A stretch of 64,000 nt of DNA, taken from the NCBI GenBank assembly GCA_951804945.1, contig OX638149.1, forward strand, positions 95,356,001 to 95,420,000, given 5' to 3'. A model generated the notes under the pieces. The model worked only from the letters and a program-made list of their open reading frames with translations, ran no database searches and had not been told where the DNA came from. Both the position numbers and the translations under genes were made by a program. The DNA is from Podarcis cretensis. Taxonomy: Eukaryota. Position 1 is the stretch's first letter. The number at the start of each line of letters is the position of its first letter. Shown here in pieces: positions 2,193-63,752 of the stretch.

Positions 2193-3341
2193 ATCTGCTC
2201 TACTGATCAGTCAGTTTACTTTCTTTCTTTTTTTTAAGTAATATTTTTCTCTTGGTGCCTGTTTGACATGCTAAAAATTAAACACATCTACCACCTTGTT
2301 CTAGCTAAGGTTTGATACAACTCTTTTGATCAGGAATTGCATTATTGCATCCTTCCCTTCCACAATCACTACAGGGCAGGCAGGGTGATCCACTTTTATC
2401 TGCTTGCGGATTATCCTACAAAAGAATGGAAAAGTTTGCTGTGGCAGCAGGGTGATCTCCCACATCCACCACTCAGAAGGGTGCCTACAGTGCCTGTTAT
2501 GTTGTGTACATACCGTCAAACGAGTAATTTGATCTATCAGCAGTGATAAGACCAATAAGCATTTGGTGCCTGGACCGAGTCTGGCCACTCACACCTCAAA
2601 TCAATAGGCAATCAGTATTGTAAGGACGGTGCGGGAGGGGGCTTTGAGTGCAGCCGTAAGTGGGATACCTTATGCTGTGCTCTAATGTTTCTTTGGATTT
2701 GGGCCAAGGAGCACAAAAAAACAGAAACAAAGGAAATGCCGTTTGGATTTTTAAGGTGGGTGCTTAAATTTAAAATTATGTACTTGCACACATCAGATTG
2801 CATTTATGTTTAAGCTGACTGAAGTATATGGATCATGTACATTTTTAAAGGATTGACATTTGATAGGCTGAATGGTCAAACACCTGAAAGTCTTTTTAAA
2901 AAGCACAACAAATCCAAGGAGATTGAACTCTTGGCTCCACCTGACGTTTTATTTCAAACTGAGTTCATTGGGAGGATATAGATTTCAGCACTAGAACAGA
3001 ATGTTAAGAGTCTGGTGAATGCTCTCCATGTATAGTATTGTTGTGGATGTTTTAAGGGCCTTGCAAAATGGGGGGTGGGAGTGGGCTGGTATAGCAGAGG
3101 TAGCTCCTCATACTGCTGCTTCCATTAAAACCTTTGATTTCCCCCCCCCTGAATGATTTCAAGATTACTACACCTTTTTTCTTCTTTTCCTGCTTGCCAC
3201 TTAGTGCCTCTTTGTTTGGAAAGCATGTTAGTTGCACAGTGCACATTGCTACCTTGCGCTCACCTGCTTCTGCTGATCTTGTGCCTCTTAATCTCTCTCC
3301 CCATTGTAATTTTGTTCTCTTTCCTCCATGCTGCCAAAAAG

Positions 3342-16870: not shown

Positions 16871-17184
16871 TTCACTGAAATGCTCTGTAAGTACCAAAAT
16901 GTAAAGCCTCCAAACTAGCTGAGCAAATACTTATAGTACTTACTTGGGACATACGTGTGTTCTGAAGAAGTGCCAGCACATACATTGTTGGTACATTTTT
17001 TTCCTTAACAGGAAAAGCAAAAGAATGTATGATCTGAAGGACCACAGGAACCACATATACACTGTCCTGGGTTCTGTGGTGGAAGGCAGGCAGGCTGTAA
17101 ATGTGATAAATGTTGGCTTAAACTGATTTATAATACAAAAGCAATGAACAATGGAACCTTTTTTTTTATCCTTGCTCTCCACAG

Positions 17185-17730
17185 CCAGAAAATTTGCTCA
17201 TTGATTTGCGGATCCCGGTGCCTCGCGTTAAGCTAATAGACCTGGAAGATGCTGTTCAAATCACTGGCCATTACCATGTTCATCATCTCCTTGGAAACCC
17301 TGAATTTGCTGCTCCAGAAGTTATCCAAGGTGCTCCTGTTTCACTGGGCACAGATATTTGGAGCCTGGGTGTGCTCACCTATGTCATGCTGAGTGGTGTG
17401 TCCCCCTTTCTGGATGAAAGCAGGGAGGAGACTTGCATCAATGTGTGCCGAGTGGACTTCAGCTTTCCCAGTGAGTACTTCTGTGATGTAAGCCATGCTG
17501 CCAGAGACTTCATCACTGTCATCCTTCAGGAAGACTTCAGGAGGAGGCCAACAGCAGCCACTTGTCTGCAGCACCCTTGGCTGCAGTTTCACAACGGCAG
17601 CTATTCCAAAATCCCACTGGATACCTCACGCCTATCCAGCTTCATTGAACGCCGCAAGCACCAGTTTGATGTGCGGCCAATTCCCAATGTTAAGAGTTTC
17701 ATAATGAGCAGGATGAACCCAGGAATATAA
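17185..17730 (+). CDS. KALRN: Kalirin terminal coding exon (PENLLIDL...DLE...APE...NPGI*)
   Basis: acag|CCAGAA; kinase C-lobe; TAA at 17728-17730. The ten exons sum to 1644 nt (548 codons). Confidence 0.97.
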   Translation, partial: PENLLIDLRIPVPRVKLIDLEDAVQITGHYHVHHLLGNPEFAAPEVIQGAPVSLGTDIWSLGVLTYVMLSGVSPFLDESREETCINVCRVDFSFPSEYFCDVSHAARDFITVILQEDFRRRPTAATCLQHPWLQFHNGSYSKIPLDTSRLSSFIERRKHQFDVRPIPNVKSFIMSRMNPGI

Positions 17731-23819: not shown

Positions 23820-24215
23820 GAGTAGTCTCCCCTAGCGCGCATGTGCACGTGGCGCCCCGTAAGGAATCGCCCCGTTTCCTAGCGACGGAAGAGGGTTGCC
23901 CCGCCCCGCCTTGCCTCGCGTCATTACTCGGCGACTGCTCCAGCGCGCGCTGTCCTCCCTACGTACGCACGAGAGCCTGGAAGGATGGAAGCGTTAGCTT
24001 CGGAGCTGTACGGCGTGCGGGCGGTGCGCTTCGGCGAGTTCGTGCTCAAGAGCGGCCTCCTCTCTCCGGCCTATGTCGACCTGCGCGTCATCGTGTCGCA
24101 CCCGGCCCTGCTCAACAAGGTGAGCCCCACGGGCGGGCGGGAACGGGGCGCGCGTGAGGGAGGAAGGCGGGGCCGAGGCAGTTGGAGGAGGGAGGCCGAG
24201 AGACCAGCGCCTCGT
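23820..24215 (+). promoter_or_regulatory. CpG island / promoter of UMPS
   Basis: Sharp local CpG and GC enrichment over exon 1. NRF1-like GCGCATGTGC 23837-23846, E-box CACGTG 23846-23851, ETS-like CGGAAG 23886-23891, GC boxes CCCCGCCCCGCC 23899-23910. Strong Kozak context aggATGG. Confidence 0.85.
23985..24119 (+). CDS. UMPS: UMP synthase exon 1 (MEALASELY...[19 protein letters not shown]...NK)
   Basis: ATG at 23985; OPRTase FxLKSG and YxDLR motifs; AAG|gtgagc. Confidence 0.97.
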
Positions 24216-25173
24216 GTTTCTGTTGCAGCTGGGGGTCATTATAAGCAGCGCTGTGCAGCTGTAAGAACTGGTCCTGACTGGGGTTTGCCTCTCCTCATTT
24301 TTTTCCTTCCCCCTTTTGGGGGAAAAGGGTTTACGAGGGTGTAAACGGGGGGCAGCTTGCTGCTATCGAATTTATGTCAGCTTCTCTGTGAGCCTTTTCA
24401 GCAGGACAAAAATGCTTTAATGCCTTTTCTCATTTAGTGCTCTCGATACTAATGGACAACAGCTGTCATCATCTCCGGCCCTAACCATGTTGACTGGGAC
24501 TGAGGGGAGTTGGAGGCCAGCCATGCCTGAATATTTGAAAAGCCTCTTTTAAACAAGCAAACAAACATGGCAAGAGTGTTAGAAGAGTCAGAAAGGGACC
24601 ACGAGGGTCAACTAGTTGCTGGGGAAGAGGGCGGCTGTCAAAGATGATACAATCCTGCCAGCTAGTAGTACTCCTGGAACCATGTTGGGGTGGGTTTTTC
24701 CCTCATGCATAATTGGCTGTAGTGGAAGGTGAGGTTGAGGGATATGGATGGAAGAAGGGCACAAAGAGATAAGAACATTGTTCTGTCTTGTCAGCATTGT
24801 TGCAAAGGATACCCTTCTCAGAACTCGGTAGCATACCTTATCATTTATGCCATATTCAACCAAATAGTTGTGCTAGCGGAACTCAACACAAGAATTCCCA
24901 CTAGTGCAACAGAGATCACACAAATACATGATTCTTCCAAGGAAATAATTAAGCTATCACTGCTTGTTGCTCCTCAACCTAAATACAAAGAACACAAGCA
25001 TAATTAGATGATGAAGTAAGCATCATGTGAAGAAACAAAATCCATGTGATCTTTGGTGCTTATGGTTTCGCTTTCTGGTGATTCTTTGTGGACTCTCCTT
25101 ATTTTATTGACAATGTATTAATGTTTGGTTATAATGGTAGAACCTATTTAATATTTAAAACTCTTTCTTTCAG

Positions 25174-25327
25174 GTAGCAGGTTTCCTTTTTCAAACAGCA
25201 AAGGATGCTGCAATCAAGTATGACTCGGTGTGCGGGGTCCCATACACGGCTTTGCCCCTGGCTACAATCATCTGCTCAACCAACCAGATCCCAATGCTTA
25301 TACGGCGAAAAGAAGCTAAAGATTATG
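25174..25327 (+). CDS. UMPS: UMP synthase exon 2 ([10 protein letters not shown]...[13 protein letters not shown]...IRRKEAKDY)
   Basis: ttcag|GTAGCA ... TATG|gtaaaa; RRKEAKDYG loop. Not in the ORF track. Confidence 0.97.
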
Positions 25328-25508
25328 GTAAAAAGAATCAAATTTACCTAGATGATATATATTGGCATTATAAGCAATGAATATTCAAGACAGCAAAAAT
25401 GTTTATAATAAATTAACAAAGTTTCCAACTTCCTCAGTAGTGTGTATACAGTTTGTTGTTTTAGCAGATCTAGAAAGGTAATAATTTGATGTACATAACA
25501 CAACTGTG

Positions 25509-25611
25509 TTTTGACCAAACTGCGGGAGGTAGTGGAAGACAGAAGTGCCTGGCGTGCTCTGGTCCATGGGGTCATGAAGAGTCGAACACGACTAAACGAC
25601 TAAACAACAAC
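25509..25611 (+). mobile_element. 5'-truncated Bov-B (RTE clade) LINE 3' end
   Basis: gcctggcgtgctctggtccatggggtcatgaagagtcgaacacgactaaacgactaaa(caa)n. 12-bp TSD aacaca[a/c]ctgtg at 25497-25508 and 25612-25623. Confidence 0.88.
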
Positions 25612-25701
25612 AACACACCTGTGATTTAGGAGCCTTAGTGCAGAAGTTTTAACCACAAGTTTTTATTAACTGGTGTAGTGCACATGTTGTTTTTAATAAT
25701 A

Positions 25702-25926
25702 CAGTGGTACCTCTAGTTATGGACTTAATTCTTTCCGGAGGTCTGTTCTTAACCTGAAACTGTTCTTAACTAGAGGCGTGCTTTCGCTAATGGGGCCTCT
25801 TGCTGCCACTGCGCCGCCAGCACACAATTTCCATTCTCATCCTGGGGCAAAGTTCTCAACTCGAGGTAACTCTTCCAGGTTAGTGGAGTTTGTAACCTGA
25901 GGTATTTGTAACTCGAGGTACCACTA
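25702..25926. mobile_element. Tigger/pogo-like MITE, copy b (UMPS intron 2)
   Basis: TA|CAGTGGTACCTC ... GAGGTACCACTA|TA. Confidence 0.88.
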
Positions 25927-26016
25927 TAGTAGCAATAATATTTTCAGTTGAGCTGGCAAGCTTGGTTTTTTTTGTATTGGTAGGTTAATGAAAAATGCCC
26001 TTTTTTGCTTCAAAAG

Positions 26017-26685
26017 GTACCAAACGTCTTGTGGAGGGGACTATAAACTCAGGAGAAACTTGTCTGATCATTGAAGATGTAGTTACCACTGGTTCAAGTG
26101 TTCTGGAGACGGCAGAGACCCTTCGGAAAGAGGGGTTGAAGGTTACAGATGCTATAGTGCTTTTGGACAGAGAGCAAGGAGGGGTAGCCCTGTTGGAGAA
26201 GCATGGCATACGCCTACACTCTGTATGCACCTTATCTAAAATTCTCAAGATCCTTGAGCAGCAAGAAAAAGTTTCTCCTGAGATGGTGGCAAGAGTAGAA
26301 AAATTCATCCAGGAGAATATTATTAAACCACCTGAGCAAAATGGTACTCCTCCCGTGAAAAGAATGTGCAAAGAAATGAGCTTTGCTGCTCGGGCTGAAC
26401 TGCCAGACACTCATCCCCTCGCTGCACAACTTCTCAGGCTGATGGAGAAAAAGCAGTCTAATTTGTGTCTTTCTGCTGATGTGACTAACTCCAAAGAATT
26501 GCTCCAGCTCGCTGCGACTTTGGGCCCTTCCATCTGTATCTTGAAGACTCACATTGATATTCTGGATGATTTCACCCAAGAAATAGCCAAGGAGTTGAGA
26601 GCACTTGCAGATAAGCATGAATTCTTGATATTTGAAGATCGCAAGTTTGCAGACATTGGAAATACTGTGAAGCATCAGTATGAAG
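26017..26685 (+). CDS. UMPS: UMP synthase exon 3 (PRPP-binding [11 protein letters not shown], linker, OMP decarboxylase KTHID and [12 protein letters not shown])
   Basis: aag|GTACC ... GAAG|gtgaat; catalytic DxKxxDIxxT motif. Confidence 0.98.
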
Positions 26686-27137
26686 GTGAATTTGGCATAA
26701 CTACTAACCCCTCTCCTCTTTTCAACCTATAATGTGTTGCATATCTCTATAGGGCTGCATATGTTCCTAGTACTCTTAATTTGAAATGTTGATGTGGCCT
26801 TCACTGACTTGAAACTAGCTCTTTATTTTCAAGCCTTCAAGGGCCTTGCTTTTGAGCTGACTTTTATTCAGATTGTATGCTATATTGAGAAAAATAATAC
26901 TGAGGAAATCAATCCTGAGGCTAGCCTACAGGGTGCTAACAAATATAGAATATTGATATCCCATATTGTGATAGTACTGTGTAGTTATGACCTTGATAGG
27001 TGTAGAAAATATGACTCGACAATATTTCTACAGTGGTAATAAAAGTTGTGAAAAGGGTATCCCTGGTTAATCTCTTAAGTAGTTATCTGATTGCCAAAAA
27101 GACGCTTAACTGATACATTGTATATTTTCTGTTTCAG

Positions 27138-34929: not shown

Positions 34930-35847
34930 CTACAAAAAAGAAAAAAAGGAAGTGATATAAACAGTGTATTTACAGGGAGATTAAACTCTGGACATGAAAA
35001 CCAAATGCAAGTTCTGCTAAAATCAATGGAATCTCATTTGTTTTCCCCTCCCCTTAATGTTATTTTGCTACTCTTTACCCATGCACTCCTAAAGTCTGTA
35101 ATAGTGTTGTGTAGGCCTAGGTGATGTATCAGTGCATCACCCAGGACCAGTATGACAGCCAGACTGCGATAGAGGCGTCAACTAGCACTGTATCACTGGT
35201 GAAACCACTGTCACTCCTGAGTCCCTCTGCCACGGGTGGGGGGGGGGGGAGCTGGCAGAGACCAGCTGGTTTGTCGCTTCAGGAGTGACTGACTAGAAGA
35301 GCCCTCCAGTGTGAAGGCGGAGGCAGCCCCTCCCCCCAAACTGAGTGAGCCCTGATGCCTCACTTGCTTGGGGGGGCTGCCTCTCCCCACCTGACCAGCT
35401 CAAGGAAGCTACGCTGTCTCTCCAAGTAGGCAGGTGGCAGCCAAGCACATTCTCAAGCTCCCTGCATCTGCCTGCCTTGTGTCTTCTTCCACTGGGGTGG
35501 GCTGTCTGTTTCTTCATGGCATGACCAACTGCACCAAGAGCAAAGCCACAGCCTGTCTTCCTGGGCAAAGGCAATTTGAGCTGACAGTACATCGCGGCTC
35601 TTCAGCTGCCGCCAACACAGCCGCTGCACATGTTTGCGTCTCTCCACCCGAGCCACCTCTGCCTCCCTGCACACCATTCTGGTCTCAAGCAGCCTCCATG
35701 AATCCTTCCCTGAACAGAGTAAAGCAAGACTTTCCTTTCCTGCTCTGTAGTCCTCAGCACACATTTGCACATTTCTTCCCACCCCCTATGCACTGAGCCC
35801 TTTTCCAGCTCTTTTCTGCCCCCCCCCCCCATGAAGTGAATGCTTAC

Positions 35848-36014
35848 CATTTCATATCTTGCCCGGGAACGCTCACTTTGGAATCTGGCAAATTCCCGCC
35901 TGTCATGAATAGTGACCAGCAGCTTCCAAATTGCCAAGAGGACAATCCCCAGGAGCACAATGCTGCCTACCACAGCCAGTAAGATCATCATGGCATCAGG
36001 GGCAGTGCTACACT
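35848..36014 (-). CDS. ITGB5: Integrin beta-5 transmembrane exon ([18 protein letters not shown]...[27 protein letters not shown])
   Basis: ccag|AGTGT ... ATG|gtaagc on -; [13 protein letters not shown] motif. Confidence 0.97.
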
Positions 36015-36361
36015 CTGGCAAGGAAAAGAAATGATCATCATTGATAAGGACACTATCTAAATCCAGTGTAAACATCAGAACTTGCCTTTTCAAATACAGG
36101 TATTTTATCAAGCCTGAAAGGTTCAAAACCAACAGCAGAATTTATGAGGCAGTATTTCAGAGACAACAGTTAACTATTAACATATGATCAGCTCTGCTAA
36201 TTCATTTGCAGCATATATATTGTTGCAGCAGCAGAGTTTTTATATATCCCCAATCCAGCAAGTGGTTACTTCTGTGCACATATAAGGTCACTGAATGGGT
36301 AAATTCACATGTCCTTTTGCTTGCTGCATGTGACAGCTCCATATGTATAGCATTTTTAAGA

Positions 36362-43531: not shown

Positions 43532-43986
43532 TTTGCTGCCTTGCATGAAGACAGACGGTGGATGCATGATCCTGGGACTGTTGAGTCTCCTACCCTCTAG
43601 CTCAAACGGATTTTCCCCAATTCTACCTTTTTAACTGCTGAGGCCAAAAACTGAGCCAAAGACTTCAGGTATGGAAAGTACTTCAAAGCCATGGTCTCAT
43701 CTACAATAAGCTGTAATAAGCACAATGGACTCATGGATGTAGTCTTGGACATGTCACATGTCTCAGCTGCAGATTCCCCAACTGAAAAATGGGAATATTG
43801 ATGAGCTACCTCACTGGATTCTAGTGATAAGTAAATTTCAAGCTGTGATGCATCATTGCTTCCTGAATTTTTGTAGGTATATCGGCAGGTGGGATGGACA
43901 CCAATGAAGCTGGAGAGCGACATAATCAGGCACTGTCATCAAGTTGTTATTAGAAGGGTTTTCACTCTAGCTAGCTCACACAATAC

Positions 43987-44209
43987 CTTTTTGTGCTGCA
44001 GACGCCTGGGCAGGTAGGGCATTTCTCACACGTCTCTCCAAAGGCACCCGGTTCTGTGCACTGGCATTTCCCACAAATGCAGTTGCCTCGGCCGCTGCAC
44101 ATCTGGCCATCGTTGGAAAGGCACTGGCCTGTCTCTGTTGAGCAGTTGCAGTTGTCCCCAATGTAACCACGGTGGCATTTGCACTCCCCACAGTGGCATT
44201 CCCCATGAC
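43987..44209 (-). CDS. ITGB5: Integrin beta-5 I-EGF exon ([12 protein letters not shown]...[14 protein letters not shown])
   Basis: ctag|GTCAT ... AAAG|gtattg on -; cysteine-rich integrin EGF repeats. Confidence 0.97.
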
Positions 44210-47200
44210 CTAGAGGCAAATTAAACAGAGCAGGCGTCACTTATGCTGCCAACAAAATGGGGACACAGTTCCAGAAGACAGCTGAAAATCCAATTAAGAG
44301 GCAGTAATGCTACCCAAGAGCCAATGTGTTCAATGATAAAAAGTCTTAGCTCAGCCATAGACTCACTGTGAGACTTTGGGAACATCACTGTTCTCACTGC
44401 TGGTCTGAAAAATGGGGATATTAAATGAGCTACCTCACAGGATTGGGTTGAAAGCAAACACATTAAAGATTGCAATACTGTGCAAATTAAAAGTGTTATG
44501 TAGTAGTAAAAAGGGCAATAGCAGGAATAAGTAATTAAAAACTGACTATGGAGGGAGACATCACATTCAGCAAAAAGTGTCACCTACAAACTATGGTGTA
44601 GTTCTCACAGGCTGCACATGAGATGGTAATCCCATCTGTTGTCAGCTGTACCCCGTCAAACTGCAGGTGGGGACTAGCTTTACTGATTCCTCTCCACAAC
44701 AATGCAAACCAGCCAACCAACAAGGATAAACAAAGCACATGTAACATACTTCTGATGCCGACAAAACAAGCCTTGCCATCCTCTACATAGGAATGTAGCA
44801 AAGCCCCAAATCATCAAGCTGGCCAGACATCTTATTTGTAACACATGTATCCCTTCCCTCTCCCCTTCAAGGGTATCCAAGGATGGTCCATTTTATCCTC
44901 GACCACTGCTCGGGAGATGACAAGTTCCCGCAAGTTCTATCAAAGTCTCTCTGGTTGCTAATGGTTGCATGTGCAGAATGTGGCCCACTCGTGCAACAGG
45001 ACTAGCCCATCCCTTGGCCTCAAAATCTGCTTTGGAGGGGGGGGGGGACAGAGCAAGTTTAGGGGTCACACGGGGAGTAGGAGGGGGAGAAAAAGTCCCA
45101 TTGTGGAGGTGAACCTCATACCCCACTTAGCACTACATGGAATTCCACTCTTGGGCTCAACCCCAACACACTCAACGCCAGAACTCAACAAAGGCTAAAA
45201 TTAATTGGCATGAGAATAGCTACACAAGGACTGCTAGACTCAAAGTAAAAAGTAACAAGGCTATACATTTGATATGTTCCGGAATAAAGGACACTTTTAA
45301 AACGGGTGGCATCTCATTTGTAGATCCCACCTGGCAAGCGTAAGCTGTACAGCATACAAACCAAGGGGCTAAGCAAGAAAATTAAAATAGAAGCAAGTTC
45401 CTAGTTATTGTTTCAAGTGGAGCAAAAGTTCAGACGCACTCTTTTTGGCTCTCGATTATTTCCTGATGCAGCTGAAGGAATATGTTCTTAGTTAAACCCC
45501 ACCCTCTTTTTTTTATCCTCGTCTGTTTTGCACTAACAAATATTTAATCTTATTAAATATTTTCATCTCAGAGTCTCTTTCCTTGTTTTGAAATAACAGA
45601 TTCTACTTTGCGCCAACACCAACAAACATTAAAAGGCTACTACAGACCTTGCAGCACTGCTGTTGACAATATTTTGCAGCAATCTCTCCCTGGAGGAATC
45701 ATTTCTTAGCTGCTTATGATAAAAACCATTCACAGAGGTTGTGACTTGCTATTTAGGATACTTGGAAATAAGAGGATCTTAAAAAGCAGGCGTATCTGAG
45801 CCAACCAAACAACTCCAGGCCAACCACTTTGGGATGTTCAACATACTCGAAAAGTAGAGGTCCCTGGCTCCCCTCCTTAGACATTTGGGTGGGGGTGGGG
45901 TGGAATCTGCAGTAACTTTCCTACTAGAGTCAATGAGGTTACATTGGAAAGAAAACATATATAACATCATGCCTTGATTTATTTAATCCCCCCCCCCCAT
46001 TCCAAAGGTGAACAGTCTTTGTTTTAATGTATTGCTATCGCATCTGAACCTCACAGCTGCCTCTGTGGAGTAGATTAGGCTGAGAAAAAGTGACTTGCAT
46101 TGAAAGTTTCGTGGCTGAACCCAGCACTCACTCCTGCTTTCCTCGTACATGTCTCCTGGAACTGTAAGGGCATTGAACAAGGACTACATCACCCTAAAGT
46201 TTTGCATAATGTGAAGCAGGATGGAAGAGTATATTAGTGGTAACCTAAGGGCTGCAGGCCATTTCAACCTAAGAGGTGTTGGATACAGCCCCACCAGACT
46301 TTCTGGGAATCCTGTGAATGCTGCTTGACATTCCAAAGCCAGCATCACTTCCAGAGCGGCACATAACACACAAATAATAAATTGTAGCAAAAGCGCTGGA
46401 GTGCTAAAGAGGGTTTATTAAGCAGACAACAACTTTAAAACATCCAGGAATATAGACTGGTTCAGCTGTGAAATTCCCAGTTCTAACCACATAGTGTTAA
46501 AGCCAGTCCACAAGCCCATGTCCCCCATACCCACCTGACATCATAGGTGACGACAGGTAGGTGGGGCAGGTAAGGAAGCAGCTACAAAGAAAGACTTGCA
46601 AACTTGCAACTTAGAAGTTATTTTGCTGTCAGCAAGCCCCACTTTATCCACCTGAAGGTGGCACTGATGGCAAAGTTGACTGCCAAGATACTAAACCAAG
46701 TGGTGTTTTGTTAATTTTTAAAAAATGAATCTCATCAAATGAGACTGTCCCTCCTCTGGTAGCAGGTAACTACTGTGGTATGTTATTAAGTATGGCACCA
46801 CCCAACTTTTCTGAAAGTGTATTTGATGGTTTTGTCTGTTTCTAGAGAAAAATGACAACAAAGGCAGGTAGTTCTCAAAAGTAGCAGTAAATGCTCCTCC
46901 TGCCAGATGGGAGAAGTGCATGTGTTTTGACTCGGACGCAAACTGAGGTTTTGTGCTGTGGAGAATTCCATTCAGAAAGAGAGGCACTGGTTAATTTTTG
47001 TTGTTTCCATTATTGCAAGGAAAATCTTTGGACACTTAAAAAGTTTGCTCAGCTGGAATTACCATGAAAGAAACTGAGCTGCAACTGGTTCATTACCAAG
47101 ATTAAACCAGCTTTCAAGACACGAATGCATCAAGAATTCCCAAGCCTGTGGCAGTCTGTTTGATATTTCTTATACACACACACTCCAAATTAAGAGACAG

Positions 47201-60600: not shown

Positions 60601-60919
60601 AATCACCTCCCCACCACAGACTATCAGCAGCTGTGAGAGCAACTTGGGATCCAGCAGATCTCAGGCTGACTTACAGAGCCTTCTCCCAGGCTCTACTGGG
60701 AGAAGTCTGCAAGTATCACTTGCCATCAGTAGTAGCTGGTGACATGGGCCGGCTGAAGCAAGTGGCAGGATGCCTCCACTCAATCCAAACGACCCACAGC
60801 CCAGTGTAAATCAGGCGGCGGATTGCAGCCTCATTCAGTCCCTGATGCAAATATTACTTCAGCCACGAACTTAGGCAAGCCAGTGGTCTCTCAACCCAGT
60901 CCCTCTCCTACCATCTACA

Positions 60920-61151
60920 ATAGTCAAAACAAAATAAAAAAAATCCTTCCAGTAGCACCTTAAAGACCAACTAAGTTAGTTCTTGGTATGAGCTTTCGTG
61001 TGCATGCACACTTCTTCTGAAGAAGAAGAAGTGTGCATGCACACGAAAGCTCATACCAAGAACTAACTTAGTTGGTCTTTAAGGTGCTACTGGAAGGAAT
61101 TTTTTAATTTTGTTTTGACTATGGCAGACCAACACGGCTACCTATCTGTAA
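60920..61151. mobile_element. Short Penelope-like element insertion: inverted terminal-repeat segments forming a hairpin, with a hammerhead-core remnant
   Basis: Arms 60920-61017 and 61025-61122 (98 bp, 2 mismatches); 29-nt unpaired tail; 12-bp direct repeat catctacaatag at 60912-60923 and 61152-61163; CTGAAGA...GAAA core. Family assignment from recall. Confidence 0.75.
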
Positions 61152-61180
61152 CATCTACAATAGGAAAAGGATACTGCACT

Positions 61181-61411
61181 GAGAGCCAGTGTGGTGTAGT
61201 GGTTAAGAGCGGTGGACTCATAATCTGGTGAACCGAGTTCATGTCTCCGCACCTCCACATGCAGCTACTGGGTGACCTTGGGCTAGTCACACTCACCTCA
61301 CAGAGTGTTTGTTGTGGGGGAGGAAGTGAAAGGAGATTGTTAGTCGCTCTGAGACTCCTTAAAGGGGAGTGAAAGGCGGGATATCAAGTCCAAACTCCTC
61401 CTCCTCTTCTT
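61181..61411 (+). mobile_element. tRNA/CORE-type SINE (Squam3-like)
   Basis: gagagccagtgtggtgtagtggttaagagc (A box), ctgggtgaccttgggctagtcac (CORE-like) and a (ctc/ctt)n tail. Confidence 0.8.
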
Positions 61412-61652: not shown

Positions 61653-61772
61653 CATAATTACATTATTTCTAGCAAAGCTATAGGGTTCTAGCTTAGCAGT
61701 AAATGTGGCACAGCATAATTACATTATTTCTAGCAAAGCTATAGGGTTCTAGCTTAGCAGTAAATGTGGCAC
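61653..61772. repeat. Perfect tandem duplication, 2 x 59 bp with a 2-nt (ag) junction
   Basis: 61653-61711 is identical to 61714-61772. Confidence 0.95.
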
Positions 61773-62170
61773 TAGAAATCCAATGTTTCCAGATGTCAAA
61801 CTGACATCTGGACTAGGGAGAAAAGGAAGCCAAATTGCAAGAAGACAGGTAACACGGTTCCTCTTAAGGAAGCCATTTTCTTTTTCTTTTCTTTTTCATT
61901 TCCTTTGTTGCCACCACTGTAGCTTTCAGTATTTAATCCTTGAAAAGAAGAAATACTGCAGACCTAACATCTGCGGATTCGTGAGTGCCCAGTATGACTC
62001 AGGCTCAGATGACTACTTAAAGGTGGCTCTTGCTACACAGGCCATGGAAAGTATGCTTCATTTTGCAAGACGCTGCAGTGTTGTACGAGTTCACGCTTAC
62101 AGTGATCAAGGCTGAACTGCAAAGTCAGGAAGTTACCACAAAGCCATTTTACCATCGTTCAAGCGGTATA

Positions 62171-62397
62171 CAGTGGTACCTCGGGTTAAGTACTTAATTC
62201 GTTCCGGAGGTCTGTACTTAACCTGAAACTGTTCTTAACCTGAAGCACCACTTTAGCTAATGGGGTCCTCCTGCTGCTGCTGCACCGCCGGAGCACGATT
62301 TCTGTTCTCATCCTGAAGCAAAGTTCTTAACCTGAAGCACAATTTCTGGGTTAGCGGAGTCTGTAACTTGAAGCGTATGTAACGCAAGGTATCACTG
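62171..62397. mobile_element. Tigger/pogo-like MITE, copy f
   Basis: TA|CAGTGGTACCTCGGGTTA ... AGGTATCACTG|TA; same orientation as copy e. Confidence 0.9.
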
Positions 62398-62544
62398 TAT
62401 AAATATTGCGAAATAAAGTAGTATGTATCTCGCTTGCCCGTCCCTTATTTCTGGGATGGTGTACATAAAGCTGTCTGCGTGTATGTGAACATTTTGCAAC
62501 ATGTGAACATGTTGTTTAAAGGATTAAAAAGCTTAAACTCTACC

Positions 62545-63200: not shown

Positions 63201-63322
63201 AGTAAACAATTAACAGAAGATCTCGGGGAGAGGAAACTGCACGGCTCACCCTTCACATCTGAGAGCTCTTACAAGATCTGAGTTGAACAGGAAAATGCAT
63301 TATTAGATCTCCTCACACTTAC

Positions 63323-63752
63323 CTGAACAGATTACACCTTTATATCTTGGGCAGGAGAAGTCATCACACTCGCAGAACAGCCCGTAGATCTTCCCAAATT
63401 CGCTCTCGAAGCAGACGCAGTGGTTGCAAGAGCATTCCCCTCGGCCATTGCAGACCCGCTTCCCTTCAGCTTCGCGGCACATGTTCTGGTACATGTTCCC
63501 ACTCTCGCCTTCCTCACATTCACACTTGGCTCCCACGTGGCCCGGATCGCAGTCACATAACCCACACACGTAGGTGCCGTTCCCACTGCACTTGCTGCTG
63601 CTGTGCTCTATCTGTTTGGTACATCCGCACACGCAGTTGTAGGTGACGATCACCTCCAGAGTGTCCCGAAACCAATCCGGCCTGATAGTGAATGTATGCG
63701 AGGTGTTCTCAGCGGGGCAACTTCGAGCTTCTACTGATATCTCAAAGGAAAC
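63323..63752 (-). CDS. ITGB5: Integrin beta-5 hybrid/I-EGF exon ([12 protein letters not shown]...TYNCVCGC...[17 protein letters not shown]); the gene continues beyond the window
   Basis: atag|GTTTCC ... TCAG|gtaagt on -; 430 nt. The six exons sum to 1137 nt (379 codons). Confidence 0.96.

Follow-up and report, generated by a model that had tools for sequence, protein, structure and literature searches.

A short head-to-head insertion of a young Penelope-like element in an integrin-beta intron of Podarcis cretensis and its probable origin by twice-primed reverse transcription

The window analysed here is a stretch of 64,000 nucleotides of Podarcis cretensis DNA (assembly GCA_951804945.1, contig OX638149.1, positions 95,356,001 to 95,420,000), and coordinates refer to positions within it. 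The plus strand carries exons for a kinase C-terminus at 17134-17730, which we take to be kalirin-like, and exons at 23883-26732 that presumably encode UMP synthase. The minus strand carries an integrin-beta gene with a transmembrane segment exon at 35605-36141 and domain-coding exons that extend past the window edge; it is presumably ITGB5, given the synteny with the kinase and UMP synthase exons. A hairpin-forming insertion at 60912-61163 lies between two Cys-rich integrin-beta EGF exons of this strand. The open frame with the EGF exon upstream in the direction of transcription spans 63306-63752 (minus strand, stop-to-stop limits), and the frame with the next recognised Cys-rich host exon downstream spans 43974-44240 (minus strand). 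The interval between the two frames is about 19 kb and contains the insertion, so that a stem of about 100 bp sits in an integrin-beta intron, as an earlier reading made from the sequence alone had placed it.

The surroundings hold other repeats. A very high-copy SINE-like repeat with very high contig depth, presumably a Sauria/Squam-type SINE, begins 17 nt past the right target-site duplication of the insertion and occupies 61180-61405. Further along are a perfect 61-bp tandem duplication (61653-61711 / 61714-61772) and, at 62167-62401, a small element that is likely a non-autonomous DNA transposon; its terminal inverted arms measure 27 nt, and 23-nt repeats lie inside it. Sequencing runs were compared as assembled contigs, and the contigs of runs X5 and X8 both skip 61653-61713, so the 61-bp repeat is single there.

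The insertion is composed of two arms joined head to head between 12-bp target-site duplications. The left duplication (60912-60923) is directly preceded by AC, and its last 4 nt double as the start of the inverted arm. This arm (60920-61017, minus strand) is a copy of the element's leader without the tail and ends within a hammerhead core. A 7-nt junction loop, TGAAGAA (61018-61024), separates it from the forward arm (61025-61151, plus strand), whose 127 nt comprise the leader and the start of an open reading frame (ORF). The last 29 nt (61123-61151) form a tail found on the forward arm only, and the right duplication follows at 61152-61163 and is succeeded by G. The paired stretches, 60920-61017 and 61025-61122, are 98 nt each and differ only at 60936 and 60943; the arms, two mismatches, loop, tail and flanking repeat given in the sequence-only reading were exact on re-reading. 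Both mismatches fall at the edges of a homopolymer run, a recurrent kind of slip, and therefore cannot date the hairpin. The loop contains the GAAGAA of the family doubled, a 6-nt duplication that likely arose by slippage while the arms were joined, and the tail is likely the spacer between two priming sites.

The predicted fold of the insertion is one long stem with a free energy of -178.4 kcal/mol (z = -28 against 200 shuffles). Its 127-nt forward arm occurs without change at 20 or more other places (40 scored of 1,036 candidates), and this identity with many other copies marks the window copy as very young. The X5 contig spans the left duplication and 12 nt of the inverted arm, which supports the left junction only; its six differing letters, among the rows listed, all lie further left. 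In run X8, one contig ceases to match at 60911, immediately left of the duplication, and leaves 55 of its letters unplaced, as a possible empty site would. Across contigs, common variants occur at 61058, 61060, 61064, 61079 and 61106.

The 29-nt tail is the start of an ORF, a feature that the sequence-only reading had overlooked. It has 4,309 exact copies in the genome, against none for the reversed control. In longer copies the sequence upstream is a GIY-YIG C-terminus, and a protein search returned at least six open frames of more than 900 aa (150 scored of 874 candidates). Five full-length frames open with MADQHGYLSV, in codons that are those of the tail (61121-61150, plus strand, in the window), and encode a protein of 910 aa. 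This protein scores 45.5 bits for RVT_1 (cut-off 29.6) and, at its C-terminal end, 22.6 bits for GIY-YIG, which is at the cut-off. It contains the linker motif CX5CX2C as CNKPRCQLC at aa 770, a motif that the available text of PMC8557442 assigns to both the Neptune and the Nematis clade. Among named proteins, unannotated turtle ORFs come closest, at about 60-73% identity.

Recent activity is evident in the longest loci. Tandem units at locus L081 measure 3,011 bp, agree at 3,010 of 3,011 positions and include the ORF start, as pseudo-LTRs do, and two ORFs on different contigs differ at 10 of 2,730 positions. L081 (G000:C14:51055000-51064500) and L083 (G000:C9:17751500-17761400) are multi-unit loci, both tandem and inverted, with intact 910-aa frames. 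Judged by these sequences, the family is a young, high-copy, ORF-bearing Penelope-like element (PLE) of Neptune type, although the linker motif is also present in Nematis; it may already be named in Repbase. The Penelope-like identity proposed from the window letters is borne out by the reverse transcriptase (RT) and GIY-YIG frames, to which the longer copies lead as predicted. The further proposal of a young, ribozyme-bearing, ORF-less family stands as regards youth and ribozyme and fails as regards the ORF, since five full-length frames start in the tail; the family is predicted to be autonomous.

The leader of the family carries a hammerhead motif. It reads GTAT, CTGAAGA, A, GTGTGC-AT-GCACAC, GAAA, GCTC and ATAC, and can be written CTGAAGA-A-GTGTGC..GCACAC-GAAAGCTC-ATAC, in which helix I pairs over 4 bp (GTAT/ATAC). 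The predicted consensus was almost exact, its pairing helix I included, although the upstream letters are GTGTAT where GGTAT had been expected. Family copies possess every element of a minimal type-I hammerhead, namely CUGAnGA, GAAA, UH, helices I and II, the extra 9/10.1 nucleotide and the palindromic 15.2-16.2. The core is identical in 69 family copies, and the whole motif with helix I is intact in 37/98 forward arms and 40/98 inverted arms of the first sample described below. Pairing probabilities predicted for the family leader are about 0.9 for five pairs of helix II and about 0.6 for helix I. Dimer cleavage was reportedly described by Lunse et al. in 2017. By its letters, the family hammerhead is intact and fits the minimal PLE form in the available text of PMC4209133.

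The window copy retains the same parts in a different arrangement. The core C3-A9 (CTGAAGA, 61017-61023, plus strand) is present, while the inverted arm occupies the place where family copies have the helix-I 5' strand. Helix II is the 14-nt palindrome GTGTGC-at-GCACAC (61031-61044), and 61045-61056 contains the GAAA core, the palindromic helix-III remnant and the helix-I 3' strand (61053-61056), with the predicted cut after C61052. An 8-bp leader helix has its 5' strand at 61071-61078 and pairs with 61126-61133 in the family RNA with a predicted probability of about 0.9. Re-reading confirmed each motif previously assigned (61017-61023, 61031-61044, 61045-61052, 61053-61057) and also that 61071-61078 is complementary to 61126-61133. 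The copy departs from minimal hammerhead anatomy in having no helix-I 5' strand and 6 extra nt (GAAGAA) before helix II; its host-sense minus strand reads CAGAAGA, in which U4 is replaced by A. These defects had all been recognised, and the predicted probability of helix II is 0.0 on both strands. The ribozyme of the window copy is thus predicted to be disabled on both strands and locked in the long stem. The covariance-model check suggested for the motif was negative: Rfam models gave no hammerhead match up to E 10, either in the 3-kb stretch around the window copy or in an intact family copy. The models themselves probably fall short where minimal forms are concerned.

Three samples of copies were drawn to describe the family. 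For the first, the 100 tail matches heading the list were taken, none of which lies beyond the first 24 Mb of contig C1; 98 were kept (one was not included and one was dropped by a duplicate filter). A 62-nt query supplied the 30 copies of the second, which lie on C2-C9 and were scored in bins fixed beforehand, and the third is a length-biased set of 17 copies. Copy L081 provides the numbering, counted from its tail end (0), which places the TATA box at -161, an initiator-like A at -131, C3 at -124, C17 at -95 and the start codon at -30.

The anatomy of the window hairpin recurs across the family. In the first sample, 70 of 98 copies have a terminal inverted arm, 7 have another or too long inversion and 21 have none that was seen. 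Duplications of 9-17 bp flank 67 of the 70 inverted-arm copies (12-14 bp in 53), whereas a control of 2,000 random pairings gave 9 bp or more in only 3. Forward arms end mostly 0-3 nt past the tail and inverted arms start mostly at -33 to -41. By analogy with Poseidon_Ac in vitro, as described in the available text of PMC11167929, these two boundary positions are probably two priming sites that bound the tail. The hairpin is the commonest product of the family and no peculiarity of the window locus, which had also gone unnoticed in the sequence-only reading. The window copy is a real, ordinary, 5'-truncated insertion and a typical family member; it carries no promoter and most likely rides in its intron as a neutral passenger.

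The other ends of the arms pile up at one position in the leader. Among first-sample arms reaching -126, stops within -131..-126, a bin picked after these data were seen, account for 25/48 inverted and 18/51 forward arms, against 2/23 and 1/33 in the next 6 nt (Fisher p ~5e-4 and ~4e-4). With the same bins, the second sample gave 7/17 against 0/10 for forward arms (p 0.026) and 6/10 against 0/4 for inverted arms (p 0.085). The third sample points in the same direction without being significant alone (5/12 against 1/7, p 0.33; 4/9 against 0/5, p 0.22). No arm extends past -131 in 59/98 copies. The ribozyme cut shows no such accumulation: stops at -97..-92 number 1/64 inverted and 2/82 forward arms in the first sample and 0/13 and 0/28 in the second, and the cut site is crossed by 79/98 forward and 63/70 inverted arms. 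On these arm-end distributions, truncation by the ribozyme cut was rejected.

Arms stop most often at -130, and the letter adjacent to this position is T in 18/27 cases, not the A expected at -131. In the second sample, T likewise replaces the A of the element at -131 in 5/7 copies stopping at -130. This T could come from an A added at the cDNA end or from slippage on a GU repeat. A cap-derived G was not seen, G being adjacent in 1/27 stops at -130. The pile-up at -131/-130 is most simply explained if copying runs off the 5' end of an uncut RNA whose start lies 30 nt downstream of the TATA box. The junctions of L033, L118, L127, L140 and L143 are filled by the leader 5' end, copied again in short repeats. 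One may speculate that they formed as if RT had re-aligned at the template boundary, in a manner reminiscent of telomerase-type repeat addition.

Target sites and arm agreement give further information on the insertion process. In the first sample, G directly follows the right duplication in 54/76 copies and T comes next in 46/76, and C stands at -13 in 34/76 (background 0.205), a position where G occurs in only 2/76. C at -13 is present in 17/37 copies with duplications of up to 12 bp (sets A and B pooled), and the second sample has G after the duplication in 14/20 and C at -13 in 7/20. Primer-template pairing cannot account for the right half of this motif. It can account in part for the left half, which is weak and to some extent confounded with microhomology between primer and template. 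We take a staggered, symmetric cut 5' of G(T) to be likely.

Both arms fall in the same poly-T variant class in 35/57 classifiable copies, against 17.6 +/- 2.8 under random pairing; 23 further arm pairs were not classable and lie outside the 57. Private variants are also common to both arms of a copy. The discordant class is one recurrent homopolymer-edge slip, in which the plain variant is paired with 18/22 such forward arms. Because most disagreements are this single recurrent slip, both arms appear to derive from one source RNA. A model with two templates, each arm copied from its own RNA, was rejected on the arm class agreement, which is far above chance.

The mechanism proposed to connect these direct observations (the family's identity and copy number, its ORF and intact hammerhead, the stereotyped anatomy, the arm-end distribution, the target bias and the arm agreement) is that the hairpin is a short insertion of a young ORF-bearing Neptune-type PLE, likely made by twice-primed reverse transcription on one uncut RNA, with its own hammerhead predicted inactive. 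We give this reading a probability of roughly three in four. The 3' repeat of the element would serve as a TATA/initiator promoter with RNA starting near -131/-130. The endonuclease would nick both strands 12-13 nt apart, preferring sites 5' of G(T), and leave two 3' ends. From each end cDNA would then be primed internally, near +1 to +3 for one and near -33 to -40 for the other, which would generate the tail. Both cDNAs would pass the uncut ribozyme toward the RNA 5' end and be joined head to head with slippage; in the window copy both would have halted within the core, some 9 nt before reaching that end. The available text of PMC11167929 reports that Poseidon_Ac protein in vitro nicks and extends both strands, that two internal priming sites bound the tail and that uncut RNA is used. 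Cut RNA may be present and simply not copied.

A broader claim, toward which we lean somewhat, is that short Penelope hairpins are complete run-off products instead of random truncations and record the RNA start, the uncut template and the symmetric cut in vivo. Because priming would be internal, just past the start codon, an RNA started at the TATA promoter of the element would offer a leader of about 130 nt as template, and about 60% of jumps would yield a promoter-less, ribozyme-bearing hairpin in place of a new element. If run-off is the right reading, the genome documents in vivo where the RNA starts and that the hammerhead does not cut the copied template. It would also document a two-fold symmetric cut C-N12/13-G, likely by a dimeric GIY-YIG endonuclease on one RNA. 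About 2,800 perfect stems of at least 30 bp would then have been seeded (64/98 sampled, scaled to 4,309), and one active family would be a large recent source of intronic double-stranded RNA.

Short copies could alternatively form a separate ORF-less subfamily, SINE-like or retrozyme-like, with a master ending at -130 that is mobilised in trans. That 59/98 copies stop at or before -131 agrees with this idea, non-autonomous vertebrate PLE derivatives have been described (bioRxiv 10.64898/2026.07.22.740005, available text), and the variant class of the window copy is absent among the four full-length loci checked; L081, L082 and L084, the three full-length loci whose tract was classed, fall in a different poly-T variant class from that of the window copy. 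A separate subfamily is nevertheless quite unlikely, for every common variant class mixes short and ORF-reaching copies, and the short ones have neither the TATA region nor a common upstream sequence past -131 and are inserted singly, head to head, whereas retrozymes are defined by tandem arrays. The boundary at -130 might instead be a 3' splice site or a structural RT stop. A pyrimidine tract and CAG precede -129 like an acceptor, G stands at -130 in 36/42 junctions, and the intron of Drosophila virilis Penelope ends at the helix I 5' end according to the available text of PMC4209133 (intron in PMC2377424). Of 42 junctions from 145 copies, none joins an upstream donor of the element, nor are the letters past -131 common to copies in that set; together these results argue against both splicing and shared read-through. 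Exons usually end in AG, unlike position -131, which is mostly T (24/42). As for a structural stop, the predicted structure lies 3' of the boundary, so that RT would have no helix left to unwind there. A splice site or RT stop is therefore unlikely as the origin of the boundary.

Two more readings concern the window copy itself. A near-perfect 98-bp stem on either strand, with low-E-value matches to Rfam microRNA models, might suggest that the integrin-beta pre-mRNA contains a precursor of microRNA or siRNA with a host function, or a ribozyme that is active. All 21 Rfam matches in the 3-kb stretch are under their gathering scores and reflect the perfect stem, so that no family match at gathering score, one mark of a microRNA precursor, was found in Rfam. 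The copy is very young and identical to many others, the predicted probability of helix II is zero on both strands and U4 of the host-sense core is replaced; a host function is very improbable. The palindrome could also be a fold-back artefact of sequencing or assembly, considering that read support covers the left junction and that both mismatches sit at homopolymer edges. The 12-bp duplication, the one-sided tail and the terminal inverted arm shared with 70/98 tail-anchored copies speak against a one-off fold-back, and the left junction is present in the contig of the independent run X5, which leaves an artefact a next to negligible chance.

Twice-primed copying of one uncut RNA, the preferred reading, can be compared with known systems as they appear in the available text of published accounts. 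Neptune-clade EN+ PLEs (Craig et al. 2021, PMC8557442) likewise have a single ORF with RT, a Cys-rich linker and, at the C-terminus, a GIY-YIG domain, tandem pseudo-LTR units with a hammerhead in the pseudo-LTR, heavy 5' truncation, an inverted 5' copy and a tail of 30-40 bp (here 29 nt). Poseidon_Ac of Anolis carolinensis (Frangieh et al. 2024, PMC11167929) belongs to another clade and is similar in its two internal priming sites that bound a tail inside the ORF, its uncut RNA template, the nicking and extension of both strands and the absence of RNA ends at the ribozyme cut. It differs in that its ORF starts at stem II, whereas the start codon here is 65 nt past the cut; in priming more than 110 nt into the ORF, compared with within about 35 nt of the start codon; and in its preference for ATT, where the present family is biased to G(T) after a 12-14-bp duplication. 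The available portions of PMC11167929 contain no description of short hairpin copies bounded by the RNA start.

Pen2a_Av of Adineta vaga (Arkhipova et al. 2013, PMC3846280, available text) resembles the family in its TATA and initiator within the pseudo-LTR, an inverted pseudo-LTR shorter than the direct one, head-to-head palindromes, a 31-bp tail extending the first codons and an 8-10-bp duplication. Its palindromes were read as self-priming on an antisense template, whereas the present family fits twin priming on sense RNA, and they are single-copy cases compared with thousands. The promoter of D. virilis Penelope is given as TATA-less in the available text of PMC2377424. Measured against the minimal metazoan PLE hammerheads of Cervera and De la Pena (2014, PMC4209133, available text), the window copy is broken; the family is very homogeneous, like D. 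virilis Penelope and unlike most genomes of that survey. Non-LTR retrozymes (bioRxiv 10.64898/2026.07.22.740005, available text) are also hammerhead-bearing, ORF-less and related to PLE pseudo-LTRs, and they form tandem arrays with a hammerhead in each unit. The window locus, by contrast, holds a single inverted, head-to-head insertion with tail and duplication from a family with ORFs.

The window insertion is of an already-known kind and matters little alone, as one of thousands with a ribozyme predicted to be broken; the added value lies in the family census. In the mostly open-access literature searched, no published description was found of the arm-end pile-up with its start-bounded hairpins, of the near-absence of ends at the ribozyme cut, of the variants common to both arms or of the target bias. 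The Penelope transposition cycle is poorly understood and, according to the available text of PMC11167929, has been reconstituted only for one element of another clade. Because this family combines intact, near-identical full-length ORFs with thousands of fresh junctions, the genome itself can reveal its priming sites, target stagger, RNA start and hammerhead role. Host transcripts are also predicted to hold thousands of new long RNA stems, for which editing or silencing is measurable. Locus L046 contains an older leader copy of 81% identity about 750-870 nt upstream of its tail, which indicates that earlier waves of the family exist.
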